DNA of 63,626 nt, counting the filler, from Dugesia japonica (taxonomy: Eukaryota): assembly GCA_001938525.1 (NCBI GenBank). It is 6 parts of 6 records of this genome, joined end to end, with 100 filler letters (N's around TTAATTAATTAA, not from the genome) between each part and the next. Parts side by side here need not be neighbours in the genome. Positions count along the whole stretch, not along the records: positions 1 to 10,445 come from MQRL01304890.1; 5 more parts are not named here. One strand, written 5' to 3'. Below the pieces are notes generated by a model. It was not told where the DNA came from, did no database searches, and saw only the letters and a list, made by a program, of their open reading frames with translations. Shown piece by piece: positions 1 to 40,407 of this stretch (the first letter of the stretch is position 1; every line of letters begins with the position of its first letter). A program made the translations under genes and the position numbers.

Positions 1-54
1 CGGCCAGAAAATAAAAATAAAACAAAGACACCGATGTCAGGTGCTCCCCTAAAA

Positions 55-200
55 ATAACTGCCAATCATGGCACCAAAATCCATAGAAAAATTATGAAAA
101 TCAGTGCTAGCACCAATAGAATCAGAGAAGAGCTGTTCTAAAAATACTTGGCAAATCTAAGCCTAGTAGGGGTGTCCAGAAAATCATATATAAGGAACCC
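55..200 (+). promoter_or_regulatory. CCAAT array plus TATA promoter of copy A
   Basis: CCAAT at 62 and 113, variant GCAAAT at 151, TATATAAG at 187; same spacing as copies C and E. Confidence 0.7.
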
Positions 201-814
201 CGGTTTTAGACAAAAAATCTTAACAATTATAACAACTCTAACAGTCCAATCTACGTGTGATTCACGAAAATCTATAAGCACTTCAGTAGTTCTGTTAACA
301 GAGAAGAAAATATTAAGTTATCAATTATCGCGCAGCTGCTGTCCAAATAGTTGAATAAATCGAAACAAGTGGGATAATAATTAAACGAAGCAAATAAATT
401 GATCAACTTTTCAGAGTATAAAAAATTTACAAGGGTTCGAGTTAAGAAACTATCTACTCCCAACTAAAACGATTGCTCTCGTAGTACCCGTTGCTGGAAC
501 AGTGCACAGATCGAGTAAATTTATTCAATATTCTGTGGATACCTATAACAGTAATTTTTCATTTTATGTTTATATTATGATTCCCATAATTGTCNNNNNN
601 NNNNNNNNNNNNNNNNNTATTAATCGTATTTTACAAGAATTTTTTTTTGTGTCTCTAAATACTTACCATAAAATTAATTTCAATAAACTGAGTGTATGTT
701 ATTTACAATTGTCAGTACACTACTTATAAAACTTTAAACCATCTGAAAATAAAACATATATATTGCCAACCCCAGTATTAAATCAGTAATAACGTAACTA
801 ACTAGTTGATATTT

Positions 815-1165
815 CATAAAACTCTTATTAAATGAATTCCATAATTTGAATTTATAGTATATATTATAAGAAAGTCTAAAGCAACTAAATCGCTGATAAT
901 TAATAAAACTCTTATTAACTAATTTCTATAACTGGAATTTATACTATATATGATAAGAAAGTCTAACGTAAATGACTGGTTAGTAATTAATAAAACTCTT
1001 ATTAAATAATTTCGATAAGTTAAATTTATATTACATATTACAGGAAAGTCTAGCGTAAGTAAATAGCTGATAATTAGTAAAACCCTTACTAAATAAGGTC
1101 GATAATTTGAATTTACAGTATTATTACAAAAAAAAATATCTAACCGACTAAATGAAGAAGTTAAC
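815..1165. repeat. 87-bp tandem repeat, about 4 diverged units
   Basis: AAAAC(T/C)CTTA(T/C)TAA recurs at about 818, 905, 992 and 1079. Confidence 0.85.
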
Positions 1166-2402
1166 AAACATTAATTCTAGTACAAAATTTATTTTTTAGA
1201 AAAACATCTAGTAAACCACTGATAACTCCATGAGTAATGAATAATAATTTCCCGAAGCAGTGGTTTACCACAATGAGGTTAGTATAATAGTCATCTAGTG
1301 ACACCGACAAATAAATTAACCAGTAATCACTATTAGCATACCTGAATATCACTTCATAAGGAAACAAATCAACAATTCCCGCTAAAATGTACAAACGAAA
1401 CAAAATTCCAAGAGAAAAATGGTAGAATTATTTATTTCATTAGATCCTGAATAACATACTACTAAAAGATAATAATAAATGACATATACAAATTTCAATA
1501 TACCCGAATGTAGATTTCTAAGGAAAGCCTCAATAAACCACATTAAGTATGCAAGAACTAAAATCTATCAAACAAATCATCGGAATCATTTATTATAAAA
1601 CATTTACGAATAATATATTTGAAACAGAAATATATTTTAATGATTGACCTATGCAAATCACGTTATGACTACATGTAAATTCCCGTTGTGGTGAGAAAAC
1701 TGTCTCGACACNNAAACTCGGAATTTCTCTCAAATAAATAATTTTTGTTGACATGGCTACGGCCTTGAGGGTAACCAAGGGCAACACAGGTTTGGCGAAA
1801 ATTTCAATTAATAAAAACGAGATACATTGGGACCAACAATAAGTATACAAACTAATCAGTAGGGTTGAATTTATTTAAAATTAATAACATCTTTTGCAAG
1901 ATCATTAGGTGCAATCCACAATGCGGCTGGAGTCTACCGGCTATTAAAAGCTTAAAATTCATNNNNNNNNNNNNNNNNNNNNNNNNNNNNNNNNNNNNNN
2001 NNNNNNNNNNNNNNNNNNNNNNNNNNNNNNNNNNNNNNNNNNNNNNNNNNNNNNNNNNNNNNNNNNNNNNNNNNNNNNNNNNNNNNNNNNNNNNNNNNNN
2101 NNNNNNNNNNNNNNNNNNNNNNNNNNNNNNNNNNNNNNNNNNNNNNNNNNNNNNTGGTATTAATAATAATAATGATATTAAAGGATACTAATAGTGATAA
2201 TGATGATGATAGTGATAATAAACGATTCTAATAATAATAATAATGATAATAAATAACGCCGATAATAACCATGGTAATAATCAATAGTGATAATACTAAT
2301 ATTAATAATAATAATCAAGTAGAATGATTCCCCTGGCCCACTCCTCTTCTAAATAATTAGATATTTTACTTGCGAATTTGCAGTAACAATTTTATTTCAG
2401 CA

Positions 2403-2585
2403 ATGACGGCCCGGCTAAGAAATATGCTGAGATGGATCAGGAAACAACGCCAGGTGGCCAGGAATAAACAATTAATCGCACATCTCCTAACATCCGGGGC
2501 CGTGGAACACCACGACGAGACGGACCTACAATGTTTCGTCGAGATGTTTCCCCTAGTACGTAAAATAGACTTAGATGGAGAATAA
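2403..2585 (+). CDS. Cassette ORF1, 60-aa protein of unknown function
   Basis: ATG 2 nt after acceptor TTTCAG|; homologs in copies B, C and D share EHxDET(D/G)LxC. Confidence 0.75.
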   Translation: MTARLRNMLRWIRKQRQVARNKQLIAHLLTSGAVEHHDETDLQCFVEMFPLVRKIDLDGE

Positions 2586-2781
2586 CCCCTTTTCTAGACC
2601 GAATCTCCAGCCACATGAGGGTCACCTACAGCTCCAATCAGTTACCCTACCATCTGGCAATTGTGTTTTAATGTTTTCTTGAAATAAAGCAATATAGGTG
2701 TTATTTACATGTTTCTTATTGCCACTTACTTCTGTTGTTAAAAGATCTATGTTAAGCAGTTATATTTCATTTTTTTAGATA

Positions 2782-3200
2782 ATGAACTACAAATGGGAGG
2801 TTCTGTGGGATCGAGTTAACCAACGCACCGTTTTCAAGCGTTACGTTAACCCTTATGACCGCAATGCAGACCTCATGGATGACTATTCAAATCTACCCCC
2901 GAGGACGTAGAACGCGAAAAAGAATGGGCAGCCGCGGAACGCCGAGCTTACCGCGAGTGGGATGGTCCCGACAGAAGTCGCGAAGTGTTGCACCGCGTCA
3001 CGTCGGTCGACCCAATAACGAATCAGGTTACTGTCCATTGGCAAGAGGGACCCTCCTTGATCCCATGTCCACCTGGACACATGTCACGGGGTACCGCTTT
3101 CCTAATCGACACAGAAAATCATGTGTAGTAACTCAAGAAACAAACAAGTGGTGGTTCGACTAAACATGCTGAACCGCTGACATGATCATCCCTCCACATT
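2782..3200 (+). pseudogene. Cassette ORF2 (NPxxRxA / WxGP family), frameshifted
   Basis: MNYKWEVLWDRVNQRTVFKRYVNPYDRNAD...; frameshift in the C-run near 2900, then EREKEWAAAERRAYREWDGPDRSRE; aligns with copy D 24989-25370; 3' end approximate. Confidence 0.75.
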
Positions 3201-3385
3201 CATGAACTTAGATACCAGTGCGTTCTCTTGATATAATTGAGTTTATCGTATTTAATAAAAAAGAAAAAACTTGTCTTCTATGAGTTGTTCTGATTGCTTC
3301 CGGAATTTGTTAATAGTATATCTCCAACGAACTACCTTTTAAGTAAAAGAAAATTTATCATATCTTCGTTGTAGATTTTGTTCTC

Positions 3386-3802
3386 ATGGATCATATCTGG
3401 ACTGTGACCACTGATGTACGAACCAGATTATCCACTTTCCGGAAATACCGGAATCCCCACAATCGAAATGCAGGGGTGTTGGTAGACAACTCCAATATAT
3501 CCCCCGAGCTAGCCGCTGAATATCGCAGTTGGGACGCAGATAAACGGGAAGCATACTATCAGTGGCGGGGTCCCATGCCAGACCGACCATATTATCCTCC
3601 ATCTCCTCACATTGACGCTGCTTCCCCACTATTGCCACAAATCGAACGAGTGTGGACAGAGAGTCCCACAGTGTTTGGATTTGCCACTACTCAGTTACCC
3701 TCCTACGAGCACCTGTCGTCATTTGTGCAGAATAACTTATGGAGCGTGCGTAACTCCCTTGGTAACGCAAATAACGAGAACGTTTCCAGAGGAAACTTGT
3801 GA
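3386..3802 (+). CDS. Cassette ORF3, intact 138-aa paralog of ORF2
   Basis: Open frame after acceptor TTGTAG| at 3374; shares FRKYRNPHNRNAG, DxSN, WxGP and LWxVR with the other copies. Confidence 0.8.
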   Translation: MDHIWTVTTDVRTRLSTFRKYRNPHNRNAGVLVDNSNISPELAAEYRSWDADKREAYYQWRGPMPDRPYYPPSPHIDAASPLLPQIERVWTESPTVFGFATTQLPSYEHLSSFVQNNLWSVRNSLGNANNENVSRGNL

Positions 3803-3957
3803 TCTCTACCCTGTTATACTTGTAGTTAATGTAAAGTTTCGTGTCTATTAATTGTCTTATTCCCTTATTGTAAATTAAATAGTATGAACAAGACCTTGGC
3901 TGTCCTATTACATAATTATCATGTTCACAAGCCTTAATCATATACTATCTCTTTTAG

Positions 3958-4325
3958 TGCACTCTTCGTTAAATCGTCCGCCGGCCCCGACCAAGAAAGT
4001 GCGGGAAGATAGTGAGGACATAGAGATGTCCTGGAGTTTATATCGCCTGGCCAAACGGCTTTGGGAGGCCGATGTGGCGACCGCAAATGCCAAAGTGAAG
4101 CGATATAAAAACAAATGTGCCAGTGTTTGAGAGGAATTGAGACTTGCACAGGAACAGGAACGAGCATGGAAAGCTCAAGTCGAATCTTTTGCAGAGATGA
4201 TCCGGTCCAGCCATGACCGAGAAAATAAACTGGTTAAGTATATTCTGTTGCTTAAGGAGAAATCTTATCTTGAACCCCTTATGATCGATAAGAGTACACA
4301 AACAAAAAACGTGTCTCGCCCATGA
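3958..4325 (+). pseudogene. Cassette ORF4, coiled-coil protein with NLS-like KKVR and DKSTQT motif; one in-frame stop
   Basis: Starts AG|TG CAC; in-frame TGA at 4128 lies where copy D has Arg; homologs at 10344, 24781 and 5815. Confidence 0.75.
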
Positions 4326-4445
4326 TCCTGTGTTTATGTAAAAATAAATATCACTTTTGGTTATTCGGTCACTTTTGAATTTAAACTTTTGATGATTGTA
4401 GAATTGTTATATCTCTGCATCTTCTTAATGATTTTTCTATTTTAG

Positions 4446-4828
4446 TGCCTAGAATCCAATTTCCTAATAGTTTAAGGCGCTGTCACCGTCTCTTACGCCT
4501 CCTCCTCGTCGAACGACATCTGAAAAGAAAAGCAGATAAGGCTTTGTTGAAACATCTCGATCAACGAGATCGATTAATAAAAAAATTAGATCTAGTGATT
4601 AAAAAGCAATCAGACTTTGCGGCACAGACTAAGGCCTTGGAGGCGGAAAACAAACTTTTACTACAACGAAAGGTTAACTTCTTGAAGCAATATATCGCTG
4701 ATCTGTCGCGCGAACTGGGAAATCCAAATATATCTCAGTGAGATGAGAACGATGATGTAGCGATGTTTAATTTTGTCGTCACTACCCCTGACCAATGGCT
4801 GGATCCAGAAGCCTTGGATTTATTGTAA
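4446..4828 (+). pseudogene. Cassette ORF5, basic coiled-coil protein with acidic/aromatic tail; one in-frame stop
   Basis: Starts AG|TG CCT; TGA at 4739 lies where copy D has Trp; aligns along its length with 23935-24296. Confidence 0.75.
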
Positions 4829-5778
4829 CTATGTTGTTATCAAATAAACATTTCGATGAGAATTATAAAGATTTTTAATTATCACCAAATAACAGTAGGG
4901 AAAATATATAGAACCCGAACCAAAGGTTTATTGGTGAGCNNNNNNNNNNNNNNNNNNNNNNNNNNNNNNNNNNNNNNNNNNNNNNNNNNNNNNNNNNNNN
5001 NNNAAATTCTTGAAAGGGTTCCCCTGAGGACTGTTTTTCCCCAGTCATTTTTGTCCAAACTCAGGTGAACCCCAACATAATAATAAACGATAATTTAAGC
5101 CTTTTTAAGGGGTTGAGGAATCATGCGAATAAAATAGTGCGAATACAATATTATTAATGATACGTTGACGATCCTAAGAGCGATAGTAACGAATGAATAA
5201 GTGTGATCGCTATAATACCGATATAGATGGTAACTGTATTATTATTTAATTTAATGATAAGGAATACATTTTTTAAGGAACAAATATCCATAAAAAACAT
5301 TAAAAAATCAGATGAAATTATTAATAACATAATTACAATGATAACAAATAAAAAAAGATAACCTACTCTTAACTCATAACTGTGTTGGTTCGAAATATAA
5401 ACAGGAATTCTTCTGTAGACAGGAAAGGCTTCAGCTTTCTTCATGGTGATACGTAGAATGACATGAATTTGTAAATATTTTTGAATAGTACGGCTTGATT
5501 TTCTTCTCGTATAATAGAACGAATATTGAGATTGAGATTAAAAGGAATGTATTAAAATTTTTCTATCTTCGTTGTCTTCTTGATTGGTTATTTTCGAAGA
5601 TGATGAATAAAACGACGAATAATTAGTTACTAATTTTACTCGCTTTAAATACTGGTTGAGACAAGTGGCAAGCAGCACAAATTGGGCAATTTTAGGATTT
5701 TGAATTTAATTGTGCTAGTATGAGAATTATCAACTAAACTGGCTTTGATGATGTCTTATTGTCGCAATTTGGGTGAAA

Positions 5779-7089
5779 CTTGGTTGGAGCTGGGGTCGAT
5801 TTAACGAGGAATGCACTAAAAGAAAATATAATAAAAATCATTGCTTTTTATCGACTTGGCAGCCGATTTACCGATATCTACCCAACCCTATTTAAAGTAT
5901 AAAAAACAGAATACAATATTAAAGATAATCCTCTCAATGAATTAATGAGAATATTAAGACTACTTAAACACTTATTTATTAAGGGAAAACATTTAAAATC
6001 ATAAAATTATCAGGATTCCGGAGTAGTATTGTTAAGCGGGGCAGTGTTTTTCGCATCTTCCACCCCGGAAGGCTCCCTAACCTCCCAGAGCATATTAGCT
6101 ATGAAGGCCTGGACTACTGGTGGGAGAGCTGGAGGTTGGCAATGGAATGGAGTAGCGTGGTTACGCTCAGGGCCATTCCACTGACGATAGTTCAGCCGCT
6201 CTCCGAAGCTCTGAATACGAGCTACTGCCGCTTCAACAGGGGAAAGATTGGATCTATCTACTAAGATCTCGGCGTCCCGCTGGTAGGGATTATGATGCCG
6301 TCGAAAAATCATTCGACGCGTTTTCCTATCAATAACTCTCCCATATGGATTCCATCCTAAGATTAAAAGGAAAATATAGTAAAACTCGAATAACCCTTCA
6401 TAAGAAAACAATAAACACTTAAATGAATAGTCAATATGCAACGCTAAATTTTATTCGAAAATCCACTTTATCAACCAAATAAATGTCATTCTTCATCTAG
6501 ATCTACCTTCCCTTCAAAAAGAAACATCTTGGAGAGACAACAGAGGTCAGTCTCGTCCGGATGTTCAACTCTTCCTTTTGTCAGTACGTGAGCCGTCAGT
6601 TGCTTGGACCGACTAATTTGTCGTTGCTTTTTAATCCAACGCAGTGCGTGATACAAATGAAATCATTAATCATAGTCCTTAACCCTTGTTTTATTTCCCA
6701 GAACAAATCGCTGTCGTCTATTAATAAAATGCGGATTATATCCTGAAAAAGCTAATCAATAAGGGGTTTAAATATGTGCATAACAATTTCGTTAGAAGAA
6801 TTAAACGGTTCTAAAATGATTAATCGTAGATATACTATGTGGCCTAATAATAACGAACAATAGGGCTAAAGTTAACGTAATAATGATAACACTAATCATC
6901 ATGGTGCGCGATGACCCAATAATACCATGGGTGTCAGGAATAATAGTGTTAATACCCATGATGGTCATAATCAATCGACTACCACCACAGATAATATTAA
7001 ACCTTCCTGATGCTCTCACTATGTAGAATAAATGGCTCCTCTGAATTTTAGGACTAAAAACAATATGATGTTTGGCATCGTAATTATAC
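5779..7089 (-). mobile_element. Cassette element copy B, internal fragment
   Basis: ORF1 homolog about 6486-6668, ORF2/3 homolog 6010-6355 with frameshifted start, first codons of ORF4 at 5815-5779. Confidence 0.8.
6010..6355 (-). pseudogene. ORF2/3-family homolog in copy B
   Basis: TTAG|G ATG GAA TCC ATA TGG, then frameshift into VIDRKTRRMIFRRHHNPYQRDAEILVDRSNL...WNGPER...LWEVR. Confidence 0.75.
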
Positions 7090-7484
7090 TTTTGGGGCGA
7101 AACACCCAGAGGAACGATAATCCAAGTTAAAAAGGGTCACAAATGACCAGTACCAAATTAAAGAACCAGTGAGGAAGCCATAATGAAAAAACCAGTCAAT
7201 ATTAAATAAGAAATCTAAAAGATCAAGTTCAATGTGATTAATTATGGAAATCACAAAATTAATAAAATTATGAAAGAAAATAAAAATCAAATGAAGAAAT
7301 AAATGCAAGAAAATAATAATTAATTTTAACGGAAAAATTAATTAAATTTGAAGTAAAACCGGTTTTTGGTAAATAATTATGGTCAGGAAAGTCGGAGAGA
7401 GTCCGGTGAAGAAAATTCAAGAAGAGAACAGCAAGTAAGAAAAACTTACCATCTTCCAGAGGGTTGTTATGGGGTCCACAAGAT

Positions 7485-7692
7485 CGGACCAATAGGAGGC
7501 CTAAAAATAAAAATAATACAAAGAAAAAACCATCAAATGGTTCTCTAAAAATAGTTGCCAATTAGAGTTCTAAAACTCTGTAAAAATTTTGGAATCATGG
7601 CACGAAATCCAATAAGATTGAATTAATCCAAATTAAAAATAATTGGCCAATGCCAGACAAGTTGGGGTGCCTCGGAAATCGTATAAAAGGAC
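7485..7692 (+). promoter_or_regulatory. CCAAT x4 plus TATA promoter of copy C
   Basis: CCAAT at 7489, 7558, 7609, 7647; TATAAAA at 7682. Confidence 0.75.
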
Positions 7693-9408
7693 CCCTTGGT
7701 TTTAGCAGAAAAAAACAAAACAAAATTTTTTGCATATTCACATACGCAAAGAACTCCGAAAAACATCCATTACAACTTATCCAAATCCGAGAATCAACAA
7801 GGAAATTAGCTATATTTCGAGATTAATACGCATCGATTGTATCATTCGATATCAGAAACTAAGAGTAAATTAAAATTTCTGTGGGTAATATTTCTTATTT
7901 CAAGAAGAAGGAAAAGAATCTAATACCAGAACCATAATCCGAATTCGCCAACTCGATTATCCACTAGCTACCCGAAACCCGTTGCAGAAAATTCTTGTTC
8001 GATAACTCAAAGTAATGTACTATTTCATTTATAGCAATGTTTTATTATATGAAAAAACCGAATATTACTCAAGATAATAAATATATTTGTGCTCAACTTC
8101 TTAAATTGTTAGCTTATAAATTCATAACAATTAATATTTACTAAATGAAATTTTGAGCCGGAATACTGTCAGTATTTAATCTTTGTTCCGGTGTAGTCAA
8201 TTTATAAAAAGATAGTAAAAATAAGAGTAACTTCGGCTTAAAATCTTTTATAATAAGTAAAAATAAACAAAATAAACCAACTAAATTTTATTTGTTATAA
8301 AAACCTAACCCGTAAAATTTAGGAGTCAAAGTGGAAACAGCTTATTCAGGGACCAGTTTTAAATTATAAATGAACCAGCAATTCAGCAGATCATATCGCT
8401 GCAATATTCGATTTAAATTCCACGGCGTCACAATAATGGAGTTGCTGAATCCAATAAATCCTTTCGTTCAGTTAATTGATGATTAAACGACAATCCATGG
8501 ACAAGGCAGGAGATTTGTGATTCCATTAAAAAATTCCGCTTGCGAGTGAATTGAGTTGAGAAACTCATAATTACCGACAGAATGGATAAATTTCATAAAT
8601 TGCAGAGTTGTAGATAGTAAATAATTACTACCTGAATTCACTTCACGAACCCGTGTGTGTCTGTCATCACATTAGTATAGAAATTGAAAAATATTTTGCT
8701 ATGATAAGGAAGTATGTTATACACCCTATCACATTGATTGATAATTAGGAAACAGCAACTCGTTACACACCTAGCCTGATAAATCCGTTTGAAATATTTT
8801 AACTGTTGTTAAGGGGGTAAAATCACTACGCAACGAGTCGCGCAACAATTCAAAATAAAAACCAATTTCAAACTTCTACGATTATTAACATTCTCATTAA
8901 ATTTTGTGAATATGGCTGCCCTGAATATCTTTATTATTATCACTATTAATTTTATTTTTATTGNNNNNNNNNNNNNNNNNNNNNNNNNNNNNNNNNNNNN
9001 NNNNNNNNNNNNNNNNNNNNNNNNNNNNNNNNNNNNNNNNNNNNNNNNNNNNNNNNNNNNNNNNNNNNNNNNNNNNNNNNNNNNNNNNNNNNNNNNNNNN
9101 NNGATTCTCTTAAGCATTATTACCATTATTATTAACATCACTATTATTCTCATCTTTATTATTATTTTCGTGAATGGTATTATAGCTCGTAGGATTATGA
9201 TTGCCATTATTATTAATTCACAATGGGTATTATCACCTCTAGAGCTACCACCACCCCGTCCAAACTATTCTTAGCATCAGTATTGTCATCCATGCTGTGA
9301 CTTGTATTATTGTCATTATTAATACCACTAATGTTACCTGAAGGTAACGTCGATTTGATTTTTTTGAAAATAAAACATGAATGATGTTCTCATTCCTGTA
9401 GTTAGCTC

Positions 9409-9590
9409 ATGCCTGCCGAATTACATAGGACTCTGCGGAAGATCTTGAAACAGACAAAACATTCGTAATAAACGGTTAATAGCCCACTTGATAACCCATG
9501 GAAGGATAGAGCATCCGGATGAAACAGACTTGTGCTGTTTTTGCCGAGATGTTTTCCATGGACAGGAAGGTAGGTATAGACGAGGAATGA
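9409..9590 (+). pseudogene. ORF1 homolog in copy C, two frameshifts
   Basis: MPAELHRTLRKILKQ / RQNIRNKRLIAHLITHGRIEHPDETDLCCF / AEMFSMDRKVGIDEE. Confidence 0.75.
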
Positions 9591-9728
9591 TTCATTTCTC
9601 CGGTGTCAGAGATTGTCGCGTATTTACGTGTGATCAGCAATAAAATGACTTACTCCCCACTTTTAACTCACTTATTTTATCTTAATATTATAAAATTGAA
9701 ATTTTATTAGCCTTACCTTAATCTAAGG

Positions 9729-10085
9729 ATGGATTCAATATGGATACGCGTCGTCGATAGGAGGACCCGGCGACTAATACTCCGTCGTTATTACAATCCA
9801 CATAACCGGGATGCGGGTATTTTGACAGATCGGTCAAACTTACCACCGGTCGAATCAATCATTGGCCGCATTAACGATTTCAGAGAGCAGCAACGATATC
9901 AAACGTGGACAGGCCCGGACCGCACCGTCGCGACCTCGTTTTCATATCAGTCTACAACCCCTCCCCCAGCTCCGGCGATATAAGCGTTCATCGCTAATCT
10001 CCTTTGGGGAGTCAGGGATCCGAATGGGGTAACGGATATTGAAAATACCGCCCCCAACACTGATAACGTTATTAATCAATCTTGA
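9729..10085 (+). pseudogene. ORF2/3-family homolog in copy C, premature stop at 9981
   Basis: Frame continues past TAA as AFIANLLWGVRDPNG..., matching copy B. Confidence 0.75.
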
Positions 10086-10445
10086 CATTTTGTTGTTTTG
10101 TTGAGTAATAAACAAGTGTTATTATCCTCGGATACTTTCTAACTTTTCGTGTGGTTAAGCGTATTGAGAAGAGGATTTAATATTGATTTTTTTTATTTTT
10201 CTCGTATAATCATAAAGTAATATTTATACCTAGAGGGTTCTTTTCAATGTTCATTTAATAATAGAAGTAATCATACTAATTTTGTGTCTCGTCTTAGACA
10301 ATATCAGACAAAGTGTAATACCTTAACTGTACTTTTATTTCAGTGCATTCGTCCTTAAATAGATCCCATGGGCCAAATAAGAAATTACGAGAGGATAGTG
10401 AGGATATGGAACTCACTTGGGATCTTTATAAACTGGCTAAAAGGC

Positions 10446-10545
10446 NNNNNNNNNNNNNNNNNNNNNNNNNNNNNNNNNNNNNNNNNNNNTTAATTAATTA
10501 ANNNNNNNNNNNNNNNNNNNNNNNNNNNNNNNNNNNNNNNNNNNN
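10446..10545. other. Artificial scaffold linker (also about 21971-22070, 31026-31145, 39919-40018, 51898-51997)
   Basis: N-run + TTAATTAATTAA (stops in all six frames) + N-run, five times. Confidence 0.95.
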
Positions 10546-10763: not shown

Positions 10764-11930
10764 ATGTCAGCGACTGTTCAATTTAATCTTGGATCTAATC
10801 ACAACACGAGCGATGAATCGACAGATAATCATCCAGTTTGTCATACGAAACCTAGTAAACCTCATTTGAAACGCAGTTTTTCATTGGTACCAGAAAGATT
10901 AGATACCAAAGCCAAAAACAACGTTTGTAACGAACAGCTTTTAACTGGATGTGAAATAGTTTTGGAGATTTTCTCAATTGTTCTAGTTGTTATTCTATTT
11001 CCGTTCTCGTTGATTTTTTCTTTGAAAGTTATAGCTCAATACCAAAGAGCTGTTGTTTTTCGTCTGGGAAAATTGATAGCACGAGGACCGTTGGGACCGG
11101 GATTAATATTTATTCTTCCGTGTTTGGATTCCATGAAACGAATCGATTTGAGAACTTTGACATTTGATGTTCCTACTCAAGAAGTGTTGACGAGAGATTC
11201 TGTAACTGTTGCTGTCGACGCTGTAGTTTATTATCGTATTTTTGATCCGGTTATGTCAGTTGTAAATGTTGAAGATGCAAATCGTTCGACTAGGTTATTA
11301 GCTCAAACAACTTTGAGAAACGTTCTTGGAACGGTGGATCTATATTCGTTGTTGACAGACCGAGAAGATATTGCATCAAGTATGCAAGAAACTTTAGACA
11401 TGGCGACAGATGCTTGGGGCATGAAAGTAGAAAGAGTAGAAGTGAAAGATGTAAGACTTCCAATGCAATTACAAAGAGCTATGGCGGCAGAAGCTGAAGC
11501 AACGAGAGAAGCTAAAGCTAAAGTAATAGCTGCAGAAGGTGAACAGAAATCATCAAAAGCTTTAAGGTTAGCAGCAGAAGAATTATATAAATGCCCAATT
11601 TCCTTACAGCTAAGATATTTGCAAACATTAAATAGTATTTCTGCAGAAAAAAATTCAACAATAATATTTCCATTACCGATTGATATTTTAGCACATTTTC
11701 ATGATAATTCAAATAATCTGGAACCATTTGTGCCACAATCATCACCTGGTAATAGTTCTCAGTCAACAAAATTGATTAATCCGCCATCAGTTCGTGTACA
11801 ATTAGCACAAAAAGCTAGTAATTTACATACAAATCGTAAAGGCTATCATTTAAATCATTTCTCTACATCTCCGTCATCATCAACAATCTCCGGTGGACAT
11901 GACTATACCAGTTCTGATTGTACTGTTTAA
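10764..11930 (+). CDS. Stomatin / band 7 (SPFH) family membrane protein, MEC-2-like, intronless
   Basis: Hydrophobic hairpin with FP, YQRAVVFRLG, GPGLIFILPC, EVLTRDSVTVAVDAVVYYRI, LLAQTTLRNVLG, QLRYLQTL. Confidence 0.95.
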   Translation: MSATVQFNLGSNHNTSDESTDNHPVCHTKPSKPHLKRSFSLVPERLDTKAKNNVCNEQLLTGCEIVLEIFSIVLVVILFPFSLIFSLKVIAQYQRAVVFRLGKLIARGPLGPGLIFILPCLDSMKRIDLRTLTFDVPTQEVLTRDSVTVAVDAVVYYRIFDPVMSVVNVEDANRSTRLLAQTTLRNVLGTVDLYSLLTDREDIASSMQETLDMATDAWGMKVERVEVKDVRLPMQLQRAMAAEAEATREAKAKVIAAEGEQKSSKALRLAAEELYKCPISLQLRYLQTLNSISAEKNSTIIFPLPIDILAHFHDNSNNLEPFVPQSSPGNSSQSTKLINPPSVRVQLAQKASNLHTNRKGYHLNHFSTSPSSSTISGGHDYTSSDCTV

Positions 11931-16746: not shown

Positions 16747-17960
16747 ATGAAGAGAATAAGTGAAATAGATAGCAAAGATCATCAATGTTCAACTAATAAT
16801 AAAGAAATAAAGGTAAATCCCATTCCAAAGAAAATCAAGATTGAAATACCAGAAATAATAATAGCTTCAATTAACGTAGAACACATTAAAATTGTTGATT
16901 CAATAGAAACATTGGTTTGTAACCTGTATCATAAGCATTCGTCAGTAAAACTAAACAATTTAAAAGTTCTTCATAACAGATTTCAAAATAATTATTTAAA
17001 TGTTACTACTGATGATTGTGAATGGATAGAAAGATTGATGAAAATATTGAAAAGTTTAATTTACAACAGTAATCTGCAAATTCAATTAAGTTCTATTCAA
17101 TTGTTTAGTTCTTTCAGCTTTCAACTTGCCAGTCTTTCTCATAACAAATACAACGATATCATAACAAATGTACTTAGACCAATCGTCAATGATTCCACAG
17201 TTGACATTAATGTTCGATGTGTTGCAATTGAATCGATAACTGCATCAATATTTTTTAACAAATCATCAAATTCAGATACAATTATAAAAATTATGAATTT
17301 GTTCGAAAATATATTTACAGAACCATCAACTAAAACATCATATATAAAACTAGAAATTGCTGCTATTCAACGTTGGAGTTTATTATTTACAATTCTACCT
17401 GATCATTTGTTAGTAGATTTCGGTTCAAGAATTTTATTTTTATCACCATATTTATTAAATAATGTCAGTGTTGATGTAAGAATAAGAGTTGGTAAATGCT
17501 TGGCATTGATTTTTGAAAGAATTAGAATGAAAATCGATTCAAAATTTGTTTGTGATGGTTATGAGAGTTTATTAAAGCAAATGGAATATTTGTCTAGTGA
17601 TGATCGCAAAGCTATAAATAGAAAGGATCGAGCCAAACAAAAACGCGAATTCGGAGAAATTCTTCAATCAATAGAATCTTATTCAAAGAAATTTTCAAAG
17701 GTAGAAAAGTTAAAGTTCAAAGTTAAAGTTTTATCAATTACTAATTGGACCAAAAAAATTCATTATGATTTTATTCAAAAAATTTTACAAGATGGCTTCC
17801 ATTTACAATTACAATTGAATATTTTAATAAGAGAAATATTCCGTTTGGAACCATTACTTGAGAATGATCAAATCATAGTTTTACTTTAAATCTTTCCAAA
17901 ACAACCAAACGAATAGAAAATAAACAAATTGAGAAACAAATCAAAAATAATCTTAGATAA
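16747..17960 (+). CDS. Interferon-related developmental regulator (IFRD) family protein, divergent, intronless, probable frameshift near the C-terminus
   Basis: VRIRVGKCLALIFE, LSSDDRKAINRKDRAKQKREF, ITNWTKKIHYD, LIREIFRL; basic tail SKTTKRIENKQ lies in another frame after the stop at 17889. Confidence 0.75.
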
Positions 17961-21244: not shown

Positions 21245-21970
21245 AGAAGAAAGCAAGGCCAAGGTCCCAAATTATAAGCGGAAGGCTACTAGCAAAGAAA
21301 GCTAATGAAGAACAGTAGTCACATGGAATAATATAATAATCATATACGAATAATCAATCATGGACAGAATATGCTAAAATACCGGATAAAAGGCCAAAAG
21401 AAAAAGAAGATGAGTATGAAGACCTTGGATTAACCAAGTTAGCTCACACTAAGGCCAATAATTAAAGGGAATTATCATAATAAAAATAAACGGCAGAAGA
21501 AATTAATATCAGTAAATAATTATTTATTGCAGAAAAATTAATTAATTTAAAAGGAAAATAAATTGAAATTGGTCGAAAATTGGTTTTTGGTGATTACCTC
21601 TACTTTGCATAATCACAGCGTCCTCGGGTAAGAAAATCTGAGAAGAATTGCTGACGAAGCATTAAGAATTGGTTAATAGAAAATGTTACCACCATCCAGA
21701 AGGTTTTCTCAGGGATTTGAAGATTGGGCCAATAAGAGATCTGAAAATAAAAATAAAACATAGGAATGACAATCACATGTCACTCCAAAAATAGACGCCA
21801 ATGGCGTAACAGAAAATAGTCAAAATTTTGTAAAAATCCAAGGCTACACCAATAGAATTTAAGAAATTTGAATTAAAATTAGACAGCCAATAGCAACGAG
21901 TTGCATTTGGTAAGCTATATAAGCCCTTGGAAAATTAGTATAAAAAACAACAATTATTTTCATAAACTAA
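21245..21970 (+). mobile_element. Cassette element copy E (5' and promoter portion, cut by scaffold end)
   Basis: Colinear with the reverse complement of 27400-28110; CCAAT at 21729, 21798, 21849, 21887; TATATAA at 21916. Confidence 0.85.
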
Positions 21971-22745
21971 NNNNNNNNNNNNNNNNNNNNNNNNNNNNNN
22001 NNNNNNNNNNNNNNTTAATTAATTAANNNNNNNNNNNNNNNNNNNNNNNNNNNNNNNNNNNNNNNNNNNNTACATGGTTTTACAAAATGAAATACAAAAA
22101 TTTAAATAAGAATTGACAACTATAAATAATCTGATATTTATAAAAAACTTTATTTAATTGAAAAAGTATTGAATTTTTTTACTGGAAAATTTAATGTAAT
22201 AGACTGTATATATAGATATAATTTCCTAAATTGTTACTTCTTTCCGCGAATGGGAGGATGCGCGATCATGTGCTACTATCTATCTACTTTTTTATAACAG
22301 CTTTTGTTAGGGAACCGGCACGAATGTCTATGTGAATGTAATTGACTAAATTATAGTTTTTGGACCTTGATTCTGTATAGGACCTGAGAAGTTTTTCGAA
22401 TGATTTTCAACTGCTGTTAAATAAAGAATCACATAGTTTAACGAAAATAATTAAATATTTGTAATGCAATATATTGAATATAACAAATAGTATTATATTT
22501 ACTTAATTATTTGTAAGCTATGCTCATAATAAATATCTTTAAAATAGTTTTTGAGTAATCAATATTATAGGTTTTAAAGAAAGAAATGCAATTTTTGGAA
22601 TTTTTATTTTTCATGATGACTTAAAATAAAATTTTGTTTTACTAATCTAAAATGGGTCATAATTTTAAAGCCCTTATTAAAAGAATATAGTCAAATTTTT
22701 ATTTAAGTTAATTAGTGAAAATTTACCCTCGCATTTATAGAAAAG

Positions 22746-23090: not shown

Positions 23091-23934
23091 TTAAGTAATT
23101 AGCAAAATAATATTAAAACGAATTATTGAAATAAATAAAATATTGNNNNNNNNNNNNNTAAAAATTCAGTAAAATCAATCTTTAGTAATATTTTCAATAC
23201 ACTGTTATATTTAAATTTATAAAGGATTATCATGCCAATTATTTATTGAGCAAAAAAACAAAACAATAAAAACATACAACGAAAGAATCATATATTGATA
23301 AAGTAAATGAAATACATGTATTCAATTAAATTAGATCAAACATTAAATATAAATATTAAATAAGTTTGAAACCAACTAAAAAACGNAGTGCGATAGTTCA
23401 TAAATGAAAATACTGATTTGATAATTAATTTAAGTAAAGAAAATGAAGGACTTATAACAATTATTTCTTTAAAAATTACAAAGGTAAAATTTTAGAGAAC
23501 ATTGCTCGATTACTGAAAATATTTTAATGTTATAAGTGCTTTAAAGAAGCAATGATAATTGATGGAGAAACAATGGAATTTAGGTAGAGAAGAGCACGTT
23601 TATATAGTAATTAAAAAACTATAAAGTAATATTTATTATGAAAATAAAATTAATGAGTTACTTGCATTTAAAGAAGTAATAATGTTGGGGTTCCACCTGA
23701 GTTGACGGTGAAGAGAAACGCTGGCCGGAGAAAAACGGCCCTCTGGGGATCCCCCTCAAGAATTTAAATCTAACGTCCCTAGGTTAGATATTCAGTACAG
23801 AGGGGTTGACCTCGAACTTTTACTGGAGGTTTCCACTCGTACATATTTAGTTTGGGTTCGTATTCATTTCCCTATTACTGTAGTCATCAAATAAATAAGC
23901 AAAATGTTAATATTAATATGTATTAGTTTAAAAA

Positions 23935-24296
23935 TTACACCTCCTNGAGAGCACCCTGGTCTAACCACTGGGTAGGCTNTTCTGAAATAAAATCAAATAC
24001 AGCGTTGTGATCATTATCATCCCATTGTAACCATGACGCGTTACCTAGTTGGCGGGATAGATCTGCGATGTACTTTTTTAAAAAATCAATCTTATTTTGA
24101 AGGAGTTGTTTCGTTTGTTCCGCGAGATCTCCCTGCTTCTTAACGATGATGCCCAGCCTTTTTATTAGTTTGTTGTGTTGTGCAAGGTGTTTGAGCAAGG
24201 CACGTTCATTCTGGCGTTTGAGATTACGTTCTACTAGAAGTCGCCGAATTAGTCTATGGCAACGCTTTAAACTGTTGGGAAAGATAATTCGTGGCA
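23935..24296 (-). CDS. Cassette ORF5 (copy D)
   Basis: AG|TG CCA CGA; PRIIFPNSLKRCHRLIRRLLVER...KIDFLKKYIADLSRQLGN...QWLD. Confidence 0.8.
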
Positions 24297-24423
24297 CTAA
24301 ACAAGAAACATCATTAAACAATTCATTTCTTTTAAAATAGCTGAAATATTAATTAAGTAAATAATTCGGAAAGAAGAATTTAATTAAAAAAGAAAATCAT
24401 TTACTTAGGAAACCGACAGATAT

Positions 24424-24781
24424 TAAGGTCGTGATGTCTGAATNNNNNNNNNNNNNNNNNNNNNNNNNNNNNNNNNNNNNNNNNNNNNNNNNNNNNNNNN
24501 NNNNNNNNNNNNNNNNNNNNNNNNNNNNNNNNNNNNNNTGACCTCGGTGAAAGACTCTATCTGCGCCTTTCATACTCTCTCCTGGGTGTGTGACGCTTCA
24601 GCCTCCTTCCTAAATGCGGTGCATTTGGTCTTATATCGCTTTACTTTCGCCTCCGCCGAAGCAGTATTGGCCTCCCACCGTCGCTTAGCAAGGTGATAAA
24701 GGTCCCAGGTCATCTCCTGGTCCTCACTAGTCTCACGTACTTTCTTAGTTGGTGCTGAGCGTCTATTTAGTGAAGAATGCA
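24424..24781 (-). pseudogene. Cassette ORF4 (copy D), partly in an N gap
   Basis: AG|TG CAT TCT; HSSLNRRSAPTKKVRETSED...AKVKRYKTKC; stop at 24570; ends ..TSRP* like copy A. Confidence 0.75.
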
Positions 24782-24988
24782 CTGAAAGGAGAGATTATTA
24801 AATTATTAATATATAATGGAAAATCATTTAAAAAGAGTTTCGTATAAAAAATGTAACGGGTGTTATGTAAATTAACGCGTGCGAAAAATCAGACCAAGAA
24901 GTAGTTAAAAACAATCACGAACCGTAATTTTTATTAGCATTAAAATTGACGTCAGGAGCCATCAATGACAATCAAGAGTTATTGTTTT

Positions 24989-25370
24989 CTACAACATCAG
25001 CATTTGCATTACTTCCCATAACGTGTCACCAATGGATGCACTCAATACAGAGAAGGGTGGAAGGTGAGCCGCTGAGACTGGGATCATTGATGGGCCTTCC
25101 CTCCAATCACTGATAGTACTAAACTCCTCGTTTTGAATTGGGGGAAAAGCGGTGACTGTGAAGTAATTCCCGGGACCAATCTGGCCCTGCCCACTCATAA
25201 TAGGCGCGCCGCTCGCCCGCGTCCCATTCTCTTTCATTCTTTGCGTCTTCCTTTGACAAGTTAGTGTAGTCTGTGAACACCCCAGCATTACGGTCAGGGG
25301 GGTTCTTATATCTTTTAAAAATCAACCGGCCGGTACGCCGATCATAAAGGGTTTTCCATTTATAGTCCAT
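24989..25370 (-). pseudogene. Cassette ORF2 (copy D), one frameshift near 25140
   Basis: MDYKWKTLYDRRTGRLIFKRYKNPPDRNAG...WAGPD / WREGPSMIP...LWEV. Confidence 0.78.
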
Positions 25371-25512
25371 CTCACAATCCTGTAATATTATCAAATATAA
25401 AATATCATTAAGAAAAAGAAGTATTTGTTTAATGTGGCCCTTATCAGCATGAACACGTAGAAGCATTTAGTTATTTTTTATTTAAATAAACACGCAAATC
25501 AGATATTTTTAA

Positions 25513-25707
25513 TTAAGCTGGTTCGGNTTCTTTATCTAGATCCACGTCAAACTTTAGCGGGAACAACTCGGCGAAACATTGTAAGCCTGTTTCGTCCGGA
25601 TGTTCGATCTTACCACGAGATAAGATGTGAGCCACTAATTGTCTTAAACGGACTGTTCTACGTTGCCTCCGAATCTGTTTGAGGGTATCTCGTAACTTGG
25701 TTGACAT
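25513..25707 (-). CDS. Cassette ORF1 (copy D)
   Basis: TTTTAG|AAT ATG; EHPDETGLQCFAELFP. Confidence 0.8.
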   Translation of the reverse strand: MSTKLRDTLKQIRRQRRTVRLRQLVAHILSRGKIEHPDETGLQCFAELFPLKFDVDLDKEXEPA

Positions 25708-28700
25708 ATTCTAAAATTAAGATATAAATTAAGGCCTACCTAATTTTAGAATTACTCGGCATGAGATGCAATATCGGCAAAAAGATACTATGCGTGAACA
25801 GCCGGTGCTTGCATTATAATAATTAGTAAGTCGAAATAATAAACAGGTTCTTATATAATTTTAATTGGGAGTGGTATGTCGTGTATGAGCGATCTGTTAG
25901 TCTGATGAGATTAGGAGGATTAATGTTGATACTACTAATGAACCGATCTGGTCATGATTTCATATTGTTAACCGATTCATTATATTATTAAATAAATGGA
26001 AATATCAATAGTAAACGATGATAATGATAAATGAGTAAATACCTATTTGAATTTTAATAAACAATGATCATGTGACCGATCTTTATCTGCGATAAATAAT
26101 AATACTCAAATTTGAGAGAATAAATTCATAATAAGAACATTTTTTTAATAGACATTAACACAATCTCACTAATAGACAGGAGTGACTTGGCTTTAATTTT
26201 TATTTATTGAGATCCAATGACTGGTGGTAATCTCACCGAGTAAAAGTTTCCACAGTTCCGACGAAACTGGCTTATCGAGCATCAAAGTGTCGCTCAAACG
26301 TTAATGAACTAATTATTTTCCCGGGCAACGAAATCGAATTCCTTCATAGATAAACCTTCCAGCTACATAACGTGATTTTCTGTTTTCAAGTATATAATAC
26401 GACTGACAGAGACCGTTGTTAGATTATTTCCCAGTATATGAAGTTATAGAAATGTGCCATAATATCGCGGCTGGATGAATTCCAACGTTATCCACTAAAT
26501 GACCAGAATCAAACCTATTATAAATGATTCTTTTCATTTTTCTACCGGAACATACTCATCGAAAATTTTGCATAAGCTATTGGTTTATGGTATTAATAAA
26601 GTATCGTTATTGTTGTCCTTTTGCAACTCTTATAGCTAAAATGAGTGAGTCAGAGTTTATTCTCGCTTGCGTGTGTGTGTGCAGCCAGGTCACACAATTA
26701 TTAGTCAATTCATTTATCGATTTTGGATTGTCATCGTGTGTTGAGAGTAGAAGTCGTTGTTATCAAATGATGAGATATGTTAGATTATTACTGAACTAGC
26801 TTGTTGGCATATTCTACTAGTTGAGGGTAACAAGTGCTTTATAAGTCGACTGACTTTATCAAAATTTTGTAACAAATATTGGTGGGGATTCCAACAATAA
26901 CTGCTGGTTTTTGTTTAAATTAACGAATGCAGATATTTATATTACAGATAAATAAACTATTAGAGTAATAAGTAGTGACATAAAATTTTATTAATCACAT
27001 AAAAGCCAAGCCTCACCTATCCATAATATGTTAACATAGACAAAATTTGTTATCAATCATATGAATTTTGCAATTACANNNNNNNNNNNNNNNNNNNNNN
27101 NNNNNNNNNNNNNNNNNNNNNNNNNNNNNNNNNNNNNNNNNNNNNNNNNNNNNNNNNNNNNNNNNNNNNNNNNNNNNNNNNNNNNNNTTCAAACGACACT
27201 ATCCTTTTCCTGGTTATCAAAATAATTTTCTTCTGCAGGTGAAAATACACTGATTAATGAAATGCTAGTTAAAATCGTGATCTTAGAATGGTTAATTAAC
27301 GGCTTAGTTTCGCACAGATCTTTCCTTGGAATGTTAATCGTTTTACGTATAGGTATACGAACACAAGTTTATTAATTGACTGATGATTTTATTATATTTT
27401 TGTCTGAATTTTGAAGCCCTTTTATAGCTTTCAAAATGCAACCCGGCATGATCCTCATTGGACAGTTATTTTTATTTCAAATTTCTGTGTTGACTTGAAT
27501 TTCCAAGAATTTTTCATCGTTTTCTGTTACTCTATTTGTGCCTATTTTTGGAGCACCTTGTGACTTTCTTGCCTTTGTTCTATTTTTCTTTTCTGGCCCC
27601 TCATTGGCACATTTTCTCAACCCTTGTAGGGACTTCCCTGATGATGCCACGATTTTCAGGTTGCCAAATACTATTACCCCAGATCTTTTTCTTTCTAGAT
27701 TTTCTTGCTACGGGTTTCTGCGATTATCCTGAGCAGAGATATTCATAGAAAACTGATTTTCGTCTAATTTAAATTTATTTTATTTCAAAATTAATAAATA
27801 TTTTCCCGATAATTAATTATTTTTCAGTAATACTTTTCTTGCCTTTTATTACTAATTTCATAATTTCTTTTGATTATTGTAATTGATGTGGATCAGATTT
27901 GTTGAACCAAGGTATTCATATCCATCTTCTTTGTATTTTGATCTTTTATTCCTTATAATTTAGCCATACTGGTTTTTTAAAATTATTTTTCTTGTGGCTT
28001 TGATGTAATTTTTATAACTCTTCCGTCGTAACTACGTGGTTCTTGATTGACTTTCTTTTCGACCCCCCTTTCTCCATCATTTCTTCGTCTTGGGCCCTTG
28101 GCTTTGTTTTTTCTCTACAGATCGGGTGTTTCACCCCAACAATAATACTAATGAAGAAAATAATAAAAGATGTGAGATAATTACCTAGAACAATAGAAAA
28201 ATNNNNNNNNNNNNNNNNNNNNNNNNNNNNNNNNNNNNNNNNNNNNNNNNNNNNNNNNNNNNNNNNNNNNNNNNNNNNNNNNNNNNNNNNNNNNNNNNNN
28301 NNNNNNNNNNNNNNNNNNNNNNNNNNNNNNNNNNNNNNNNNNNNNNNNNNNNNNNNNNNNNNNNNNNNNNNNNNNNNNNNNNNNNTTTCTGCAATTATAT
28401 AAATTTCATCTGAATATTTAATGTATGTCATTTCTCAAATTGTGTTTTTATTTTATGTATTTTGTGATGAAATTCAATTTTTCACTCCCATTTTCCTATA
28501 GAGATAATATAAAATTTTTTTTTACTGATACTCATTTAATTAACCACTAGACAATTATAATGTGACAAGTTGAGTTAATTCTAAAATAAATAAATATAAA
28601 TTACAAAGTCTAGAAATACAGGTCAAATTGTGTGTTTAGATACTAAAATTCTAAAGTTTGAAAATAAGTAATGGGTTNNNNNNNNNNNNNNNNNNNNNNN

Positions 28701-31025: not shown

Positions 31026-31319
31026 AATTTTACTCAGGAAGAAACNNNNNNNNNNNNNNNNNNNNNNNNNNNNNNNNNNNNNNNNNNNNTTAATTAATTA
31101 ANNNNNNNNNNNNNNNNNNNNNNNNNNNNNNNNNNNNNNNNNNNNAAGTTTATTATTGATCTAAAAAAAGCAGATGGAAATTTAAAATTAATTTTTCAAT
31201 ATGCAAGTAAAATTGATAAAAAAAAATACATAAAATGGGCATATTAATACAATACCTTCTAATCCTTTCAATTGCTATAAAGTTAGATGTTTCAAAAATG
31301 AAAAGATTATTGAACATAT

Positions 31320-39918: not shown

Positions 39919-40407
39919 NNNNNNNNNNNNNNNNNNNNNNNNNNNNNNNNNNNNNNNNNNNNTTAATTAATTAANNNNNNNNNNNNNNNNNNNNNNNNNN
40001 NNNNNNNNNNNNNNNNNNATATTTCGATTAACGAATAAGGTATGTCCACGATACTAGTTCATTTAGCGAAATCTCGTTTTCAGAGTTCAAAAAAATATGT
40101 TCAGAATAATAGATAACAAAATCTATCCAGTTTTTTTAATCTTTGAAGTTTCACTTAAAGATTTATTTTCGTAGAAGTTTATTCCGATTGTCATCTCAAA
40201 TAAAAACGAAAGTCTTTTACGTAAAGATTTGTTTATAATCAGAGTTATTTTAATTCTTTTCTGATCGAATTTAGAAAATAAAAATGACCACTTGTAAAAG
40301 ATCTCAATAATAAACTGACAACAAATATATCCAATAAATTACTTTAAATTAAATAAGTAACTTTGTCGACCTAAAACGAAATACTTTTGATTTCGTGTCG
40401 TATAGAG

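Follow-up and report, generated by a model that had tools for sequence, protein, structure and literature searches.

Small genes in series within a likely solo LTR of Dugesia japonica, predicted to share one promoter and a cis-spliced leader

We have found in Dugesia japonica a repeated mobile element of 4.5-5.6 kb that bears four or five tiny genes in series. Five copies or parts of copies (A to E) lie in the window, by which we mean the whole stretch of DNA analysed (63,626 nt, six parts of assembly GCA_001938525.1 joined end to end). According to our reading, to which we give a probability of roughly 0.6, the four or five small genes lie in a likely solo LTR and would be expressed from one promoter, through a shared leader that is cis-spliced to them, each with its own poly(A) site. 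A broader proposal has about even odds: the LTR would be a complete multi-gene unit, in which a cascade of splicing and poly(A) choice yields four or five regulatory micro-proteins, two of them with an A/UG start (the slash marks the splice junction), and each solo LTR would be a portable, promoter-complete cassette.

Acceptor-ORF-hexamer modules

Along copy A, the array and the region upstream of it are arranged as follows:

1..214, + strand: promoter-like region, with CCAAT at 62 and 113 and TATA at 187
215..514, + strand: predicted leader exon, free of ATG and with A as its last base, its start placed from the TATA box; donor cgA/GTAAAT at 514/515
515..2400, + strand: predicted first intron; it contains four tandem repeats of 87 bp (790-1133), a tract rich in AAT (2155-2320) and assembly gaps
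2403..2585, + strand: ORF1, 60 aa, intact; acceptor 2400, AATAAA 2683
2782..3128, + strand: ORF2, a paralogue of ORF3, with a frameshift near 2890-2910; acceptor 2778, AATAAA 3254
3386..3802, + strand: ORF3, 138 aa, intact, with one outside relative (P0121); acceptor 3374, ATTAAA 3874
3958..4325, + strand: ORF4, TG start directly after acceptor 3957; premature stop 4128; AATAAA 4343
4446..4828, + strand: ORF5, TG start directly after acceptor 4445; premature stop 4739; AATAAA 4843

The five acceptors and the five hexamers of this list are those that an earlier note on this DNA had named, and every one of them was found in its place. Remeasuring copies A to D also gave the same distances between hexamers and acceptors as the note: from the end of a hexamer to the next AG there are 90, 115, 78 and 97 nt in A, while the spacing is 93 (B), 83 (C) and 97 nt (D) after ORF1 and 159 (B), 231 (C) and 148 nt (D) before ORF4. 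By an ad hoc score (the weights for donors and acceptors were made for the present analysis), the acceptors rank 1, 2, 3, 4 and 10 among the 143 AG sites of A, 2, 3, 5 and 7 among the 118 of D, 1, 2 and 12 among the 57 of C, and 1, 2 and 12 among the 63 of B. Sense AATAAA is present in 10 of the 13 spacers, with 2.9 expected from dinucleotide shuffles (p ~1e-5), and the antisense control shows no enrichment (7 of 13, 5.7 expected, p 0.3); these p values overstate independence, because the copies are related. Three spacers compared between A and D are at chance identity and still keep hexamer and acceptor. The earlier note had cautioned that AATAAA is common in AT-rich DNA, and here it is indeed frequent: copy A has 11 within its intron (1,669 nt) and 4 within its spacers (825 nt), with 3 more in ORFs. 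Since the intron is as dense in AATAAA as the spacers, many sites would need to be skipped. After ORF5, copy D has no hexamer. As arrangements of motifs, the acceptor-ORF-hexamer modules are real.

ORF2, ORF4 and ORF5 are broken in copy A, and the paralogues ORF2 and ORF3 of A correspond to a single ORF in B, C and D. With pN of 0.19-0.44 against pS of 0.68-1.17 in 15 of 16 valid ORF pairs, and 0.24-0.44 against 0.73-1.11 in all five further pairs, substitution patterns indicate that the ORFs are under purifying selection. For the ORF2/ORF3 paralogue pair of A, pN is 0.54 and pS 0.59.

Promoter, leader and donor

The promoter is kept in copies A, C, D and E, and the promoter-like region of A has 61-68% identity to C and D, compared with 51% for shuffles. 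A TATA box with CCAAT upstream occurs at 187 and 417 in A, 7682 in C, 27426 in D, and 21916 and 21939 in E. All these pairs lie at or just behind one promoter and none in the ORF region, which bears out the earlier observation that the array has no CCAAT/TATA array of its own. Behind the TATA box, an ATG-free run extends over 300 (A), 302 (C) and 211 nt (D), with shuffle P of 0.007, 0.03 and 0.01, respectively; ATG-free tiles number 19 of 1880 in the window. The leader of A also lacks the antisense triplet CAT, and its likeness to that of C is none beyond chance (0.53, compared with 0.52 for shuffles). The eight best GT sites of A and of C include five ATG-free donors, four of which end in A; the TATA box precedes donor 515 of A by 328 nt and donor 8012 of C by 330 nt. 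Stronger donor-like sites exist deeper in the intron, and the expected donor position of copy D falls in a gap.

Transcription would start near 215, judging by the TATA box, and the single promoter would give one pre-mRNA with a shared non-coding leader that ends at donor 514/515. This leader would be cis-spliced onto alternative acceptors, one per ORF, and each product would likely end at its own poly(A) site, with cleavage after each hexamer. Competition between poly(A) sites and acceptors may set the amount of each mRNA.

Start codons of ORF4 and ORF5

All six ORF4 and ORF5 acceptors read YAG/TG, compared with 31 of 298 YAG sites. The conserved frame of both ORFs begins at this point without an AUG (AG/TG in six of six), homology among the copies begins exactly there, and an in-frame upstream ATG is absent in five of the six cases. 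A leader ending in A opens the conserved frames of ORF4 and ORF5. With a complete AUG at its end, a leader opens only 4 codons at ORF4 (four of four copies) and 9 at ORF5 (two of two). As the best donors end in A, cis-splicing would build a start codon A/UG from the last base of the leader and the TG at the acceptor. The flatworm SL ends in AUG and would be out of frame, which argues against trans-splicing. The earlier note had proposed that one pre-mRNA is resolved into single-ORF mRNAs, either through a common cis leader or by trans-splicing; at the DNA level the proposal itself and the cis-leader route hold up, and the trans-splicing route does not fit.

The mobile unit

The copies are distributed in the window as follows:

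1..5077, + strand: copy A, likely a giant LTR; left end beyond the window, CCCCAACA (5070-5077) as right end
5790..7089, - strand: copy B fragment with ORF1, ORF3 and the start of ORF4, split by copy C
7090..10445, + strand: copy C, with left end, promoter (TATA 7682), ATG-free leader, and donors 7865 and 8012
within 7090..10445, + strand: coding part of copy C, with ORF1, ORF3 and the start of ORF4, truncated by the scaffold end
23683..28141, - strand: copy D, 4,459 nt, with both ends, TGTTGGGG...CCCCAACA, and a TTAT duplication; ORF1, ORF3, ORF4 and ORF5
21250..21970, + strand: copy E, limited to the left part and the promoter (TATA 21916), truncated by the scaffold end; start approximate

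Copy D, the sole copy of the five with both ends, has the termini TGTTGGGGT...ACCCCAACA, that is, TG...CA with a short inverted repeat (~9 nt). The right end of copy A is identical to that of D, and the left end of C is a one-base variant. TTAT stands on either side of copy D, a 4-bp AT-rich match that could arise by chance at the percent level. The TG...CA ends, the 4-bp duplication (within the 4-6 bp of this group) and, at the level of motifs, the internal promoter and poly(A) signal are features expected of a Ty3/Gypsy LTR. The ends and the target duplication of copy D make a solo LTR of some giant Ty3/Gypsy-type flatworm retroelement the likely identity of the mobile unit. No gag-pol, PBS or PPT was found in the window, including beside the four element ends present, so LTR identity and orientation stay putative. 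The text of the earlier note described the cascade without placing it inside a solo-LTR-like mobile unit.

A search of positions 1-28200 against Rfam gave 0 matches. Close to the right end of the unit, the following structure is predicted:

5016..5072, + strand: right-end nested hairpin of copy A, with the same fold predicted in copy D

Between A and D there are two double-sided changes in a 5-bp stem, in a comparison of two sequences only. Covariation at this level was reached by 133 of 500 shuffles, the fold of D itself has a z of -0.4 to -0.8, and the covariation is only a hint.

Alternative readings

The same cis-spliced cascade could belong to a unit other than an LTR, either a self-contained, non-autonomous element moved by a DDE integrase/transposase or the cassette of an unknown DNA virus. 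This is unlikely, although it would suit the fact that copy D stands alone and that no copy touches gag-pol, PBS or PPT, and as an LTR in ORF-sense orientation the unit would need a reverse-transcription strong-stop DNA of >4 kb, which is unusual. Against it, the terminal inverted repeat is so short, the ends are TG...CA with a 4-bp duplication, the Pol II promoter (by its motifs) lies inside the unit, 590-720 nt from one end, and the last AATAAA is 235 nt from the other end in copy A. Besides, recorded LTR lengths reach 6.5 kb in Ogre, and planarians are known to have giant Gypsy elements (PMC6431247). One could also argue that AT-rich spacers between decayed ORFs hold AG and AATAAA by chance, AATAAA being frequent in the intron and the ORFs too. 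The sense-only enrichment, the top-ranked acceptors in four copies, the purifying selection and the exact start of homology at AG/TG make this highly improbable, and comparison across the copies refutes it in the main.

Another reading changes the role of the leader, which would be non-coding for ORF1-3 only: ORF4 and ORF5 would be alternative last exons in phase 1 after a coding exon, or would use the genomic GTG (made of the acceptor's G and the TG) as start on unspliced or internally started RNA. Any phase 1 exon end fits AG/TG, all six acceptors have GTG in the genomic frame, and codon 22-24 of ORF4 is an in-frame ATG in copies A, C and D. We nevertheless hold it to be distinctly unlikely, with no ATG from the TATA box to the candidate donors of A or C, no common donor seen by eye within ORF1 of the four copies, strong conservation of the 21-23 codons ahead of the inner ATG of ORF4, and no ATG within the open ORF5 frame of either A or D. 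An operon resolved by SL trans-splicing, the route taken in nematodes and by some flatworm genes, is very unlikely. SL trans-splicing and operons have been described in flatworms, including Schmidtea and Macrostomum, and the ~100 nt that separate a poly(A) site from the next acceptor in such operons are matched by the 78-115 nt of copy A; copies B to D have 83-97 or 148-231 nt. Yet the AUG-ending flatworm SL used for comparison (not the host's own) would open just the few codons given above at ORF4 and ORF5, which would thus not be translatable after SL addition, and would be in frame with only 3 of 8 starts of ORF1-3 (ORF1 of B left out).

RNA runs

No splice junction was found in three raw RNA runs (likeness of at least 88%), in which copy A is barely covered: 3, 7 and 2 of its 30 bins, with 6-25% of each run read. 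With next to no coverage, these runs listed no read piles or loose ends at the acceptors either. In run X1, 29 of the 30 bins of copy A were covered (1,069 contigs), promoter and intron included, and for that reason we take X1 as a DNA-like sign of a multi-copy family and not of expression.

Comparison with known systems

In the adenovirus major late unit, transcripts from one promoter are made into single-ORF mRNAs by joining a common non-coding leader to alternative 3' splice sites and by using several poly(A) sites. Read from DNA alone, the predicted cis-spliced cascade is like it in its layout of promoter, leader, acceptors and poly(A) sites, and would be a variant form of retroelement accessory-gene expression. 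Unlike the adenovirus unit, it is integrated, with TG...CA ends, a target duplication and one acceptor per poly(A) site, its tiny proteins match no viral fold or family, and its leader is predicted to supply a start-codon base. Capsid and replication genes and long ITRs are hallmarks of adenoviruses; here, the ORFs have no Pfam match above cut-off, the ORF2/3 family has no PHROG or viral-fold match, and the terminal repeat is 9 nt, which speaks against membership of the Adenoviridae. MMTV sag and HIV nef are genes that overlap the LTR and are expressed from spliced mRNA, as is predicted here for coding sequence within the likely LTR. They are single U3 ORFs under the promoter of the other LTR, whereas here the whole array is downstream of a promoter in the same unit, and therefore a solo copy could express it.

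Burro and GYPSM1 are giant Gypsy-like planarian LTR retrotransposons with accessory ORFs, an element length of >30 kb and a giant gag-env-pol polyprotein (PMC6431247). They share with the present unit, itself a likely part of a giant LTR element, accessory ORFs in an AT-rich flatworm genome and, set side by side with it by description, are its probable parent class; the parts of that account drawn on here name no spliced ORF array in the LTR (PMC6431247). As to the host, RPL19 of the window has many named matches in molluscs, Macrostomum and rotifers at 66-75%, of which none is close, and a bird record scores highest. In the MDG1-group of Drosophila (412, Mdg1, Blood, Stalker), sORF1 and sORF2 lie upstream of gag and evolve under purifying selection; a poly(A) site between the two is used and, in the account drawn on, the transcripts bear no sign of splicing (PMC11952523). 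The small accessory ORFs, their selection and the poly(A) site between them (predicted in the present unit) are alike in both systems, but the two sORFs compare here with four or five that lie inside the terminal unit and have an acceptor each. The springer subclade of errantiviruses is reported to build the env start codon across a splice junction, with AU from the upstream exon (bioRxiv 10.1101/2023.08.03.551782). A start codon built by splicing is likewise predicted here, as A/UG instead of AU/G, for two ORFs instead of one, and with a leader common to AUG-bearing ORFs. Our literature search found no account of spliced ORF arrays in planarian LTRs; Grohme 2018, the supplement and Repbase, outside its scope, may describe them.

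If RNA confirms the cascade, the LTR would be, beyond a promoter and a terminator, a polycistronic unit of genes whose RNA processing is virus-grade. This would raise two problems: full-length RNA must pass five poly(A) sites, and so long a repeat has to be reverse-transcribed. Several small protein families, scattered through a multi-copy repeat, would be added; they have probably been missed by annotation, because two of them have no AUG in the DNA. The repeat belongs to a probable regeneration-model animal, for which tissue-specific expression of Gypsy elements has been reported (PMC8532177).

Predicted proteins

Nothing above cut-off was found in Pfam with nine ORF pieces of the element, PHROGs gave matches for 0 of 7 ORF queries, and the ORF2/3 and ORF4 alignments gave none in word-based searches. 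The proteins thus match no family and, if confirmed, would be several small new ones. Used in a full HMM search, the ORF2/3 profile had three matches, one of them a true relative (P0121, 94 aa, on a 512-nt ENA contig, E 3e-19); the other two were repetitive proteins and were discarded as spurious. The viral contig collection held no match to ORF5. A match to ORF1 in metagenome contigs covered only 21 residues, in a GC-rich bacterial ABC-transporter locus, and was rejected. The model of ORF3 was poor (pLDDT 51) and gave no viral-fold match. ORF5 is modelled as a single long helix (pLDDT 90), a shape that tells little in fold comparisons, predicted to be followed by an acidic aromatic tail, and ORF4 has a basic KKVR stretch. 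There is a weak suggestion that the cascade proteins are the element's own regulators, like the accessory proteins of complex retroviruses. A sense reading of TGA was also considered and rejected, because ORF3 of A, B and C ends at this codon.

Arrangement and coding capacity of the modules

Copy A (1..5077) is one of several diverged copies of a mobile element. In it, the earlier note had described a row of small ORFs (ORF1 to ORF5), each lying between an acceptor-like AG (2400, 2778, 3374, 3957 and 4445) and a poly(A) hexamer (2683, 3254, 3874, 4343 and 4843). All of these sites were found at the claimed positions, and the spacings between hexamers and acceptors also held. By translated self-comparison, the same ORFs recur in copies B (5790-7089, minus strand), C (7090-10445) and D (23683-28141, minus strand), and copy E presents the promoter end alone. 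Using an ad hoc score for acceptors and donors, with weights of our own, the proposed acceptors of A took ranks 1-4 and 10 among 143 AG sites, and those of B, C and D also ranked high. Regarding the hexamers, sense AATAAA was present in 10 of 13 spacers versus 2.9 expected, and antisense AATAAA in 7 of 13 versus 5.7. Three spacers compared between A and D were no more alike than shuffles, and the ORFs, promoter and right end of the same copies exceeded shuffles; the module signals are thus retained where the spacer sequence itself has diverged. Counting against the arrangement, the intron of A has 11 AATAAA in 1,669 nt, as dense as the spacers of A (4 in 825 nt). Besides, we found no hexamer 3' of ORF5 in copy D. 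The acceptor-ORF-hexamer arrangement is real, selected and unusual.

By their substitution pattern, the ORFs of the element are genes. In 15 of 16 valid ORF pairs pN was 0.19-0.44 versus a pS of 0.68-1.17, values that indicate constraint and not a rate, because synonymous sites have reached saturation and a local alignment picks out the better conserved parts. The ORF2/ORF3 paralogues of A were the exception (0.54 versus 0.59), and five further pairs out of five agreed with pN < pS. A gene present once each in B, C and D is duplicated in A, as ORF2 and ORF3. Copy A is decayed: a frameshift near 2890-2910 breaks its ORF2, and premature stops interrupt ORF4 (4128) and ORF5 (4739). The ORF proteins matched no family; one outside relative of ORF3, P0121, begins at the same methionine. 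For ORF5, a structure model predicted one long helix, and there is an acidic tail.

Predicted route of splicing

ORF4 (four copies) and ORF5 (two copies) start at YAG|TG in every case, with homology beginning exactly there, and in the background TG follows 31 of 298 YAG sites. Five of the six cases have no upstream in-frame ATG, ORF5 being an open frame without ATG. Hence, the exon joined to ORF4 and ORF5 must end after the first base of a codon. The earlier note had offered two routes, a spliced leader (SL) added in trans or a common cis leader. The flatworm SL is described as ending in AUG (PMC9851317), and such an SL would open 4 codons at ORF4 and 9 at ORF5, which argues against trans-splicing; it would be in frame with three of the eight ORF1-3 starts, the chance level. 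Regarding the cis leader, the stretch behind the TATA box is free of ATG for 300 nt in A, 302 nt in C and at least 211 nt in D, and 19 of 1,880 window tiles are ATG-free. The best donors in these stretches, by our ad hoc score, were:

515, copy A, cgA|GTAAAT
7865, copy C, agA|GTAAAT, or 8012, copy C, aaA|GTAATG

Donor 515 is 328 nt and donor 8012 is 330 nt away from the TATA box; the first ATG comes at 566 in A and 8015 in C. If the leader exon ended in A, splicing would yield A|UG at ORF4 and ORF5, and the exon would be an ordinary 5' UTR ahead of ORF1-3. Against this reading, the leaders of A and C aligned no better than shuffles, donor-like sites deeper in the intron score higher than those of the leader, and the expected donor position of D falls in an assembly gap.

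With a cis leader, Pol II would start near 215 and the leader donor would be joined to the acceptor lying just ahead of the poly(A) site in use, so that skipping a poly(A) site would turn the next module into the last exon. Four or five mRNAs would result, each with a single ORF behind one common leader, two of them translatable only once spliced. Going by sequence features, the proteins would probably be regulators of the element itself.

Three raw RNA runs, compared with copy A at 88% likeness, reached 3, 7 and 2 of its 30 bins, for the most part the AAT repeat and the right end, and contained no splice joints on this copy. One run gave a depth of 1-2 over ORF1 and ORF4, with reads fitting in part only. 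Copy A looks silent in the sampled RNA, which has no bearing either way on junctions in expressed relatives. RNA reads of relatives sit on 5004-5042, downstream of the final poly(A) motif.

The mobile unit

Copy D runs from TGTTGGGGT to ACCCCAACA (4,459 nt) with TTAT at both flanks; the right end of A is the same terminus, ACCCCAACA, and copy C starts, inside copy B, with a one-base variant of D's left terminus. The distance from the left end to the CCAAT/TATA promoter is 593-716 nt, and that from the final hexamer of A to its right end is 235 nt. Because of these termini, the TTAT duplication and the positions of promoter and last hexamer, the unit is likely a solo LTR by anatomy; we keep this identity at likely because neither a PBS nor a PPT nor a gag-pol frame was found beside any copy in the window. 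The orientation of the cascade relative to gag-pol could be either sense or antisense. As for size, Ogre LTRs are reported to reach 6.5 kb, and planarians to have giant Gypsy elements (PMC6431247). The family is large and varied, with 1,069 matching contigs in run X1.

Copy C lies head-to-head inside copy B (junction 7089/7090), and B stops 700 nt from the right end of A; the presence of three members of the family on a single 10-kb scaffold points to nested insertion. Ahead of ORF1, the ORF strand has a triplet-rich tract that is rich in AAT in A (2155-2320) and in ATT in B and C (6840-7000 and 8920-9260); either an inversion or a piece placed in the wrong orientation next to the gap (1963-2154) would explain the difference. 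In C (8912-9274, plus) and B (6801-7088, minus), the ATT-rich tract can be read as one long hydrophobic frame rich in Ile, possibly a further membrane-protein ORF or a microsatellite only. A nested GC-rich hairpin is predicted at the right end (A 5016-5072, D 23683-23800), where A and D differ by two double-sided changes. The intron of A holds four 87-bp tandem repeats (790-1133), some of which include GT sites that resemble strong donors (968, 1055).

Comparison with known systems

The cascade would work like the adenovirus late unit but is not itself adenoviral. Retroviruses have genes overlapping the LTR, a partial precedent, as these are single genes. The env start codon of the springer subclade, described as built by splicing (bioRxiv 10.1101/2023.08.03.551782), is a precedent for the predicted ORF4/ORF5 start. 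The MDG1 sORFs, reported with a poly(A) site in between (PMC11952523), are another for the site between small ORFs, on RNA described as unspliced. In the literature searched (Grohme 2018 and its supplement being outside its scope), we found no description of a spliced ORF cascade inside a terminal repeat; within it, the components have retroelement precedents and their combination within a terminal repeat appears new.

Other contents of the window

The window DNA is AT-rich and includes animal genes, and a planarian-type flatworm is the probable host. Its joins are artificial N44-TTAATTAATTAA-N44 spacers (10446-10545, 21971-22070, 31046-31145, 39919-40018 and 51898-51997), and neighbourhood across them is meaningless because the six scaffolds are unrelated. 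The other features were:

10764-11930, stomatin/Band 7 protein, host gene, frame uninterrupted
16747-17889, IFRD protein, host gene, frame uninterrupted
55291-55860, RPL19, host gene, frame uninterrupted
46105-49627, minus, decayed non-LTR retrotransposon, Ulp1-type protease (Peptidase_C48) 5' of the reverse transcriptase
41336-42147, 30706-30984, 44956-45255, 50342-50692, 35394-35687 and 62280-62552, other transposon fragments

These fragments include an integrase piece and an RT piece, and frames that we take, by resemblance, to be Tc1/mariner-like and hAT-like. RPL19 gave many named matches in molluscs, Macrostomum and rotifers, at 66-75% identity and with no near one.
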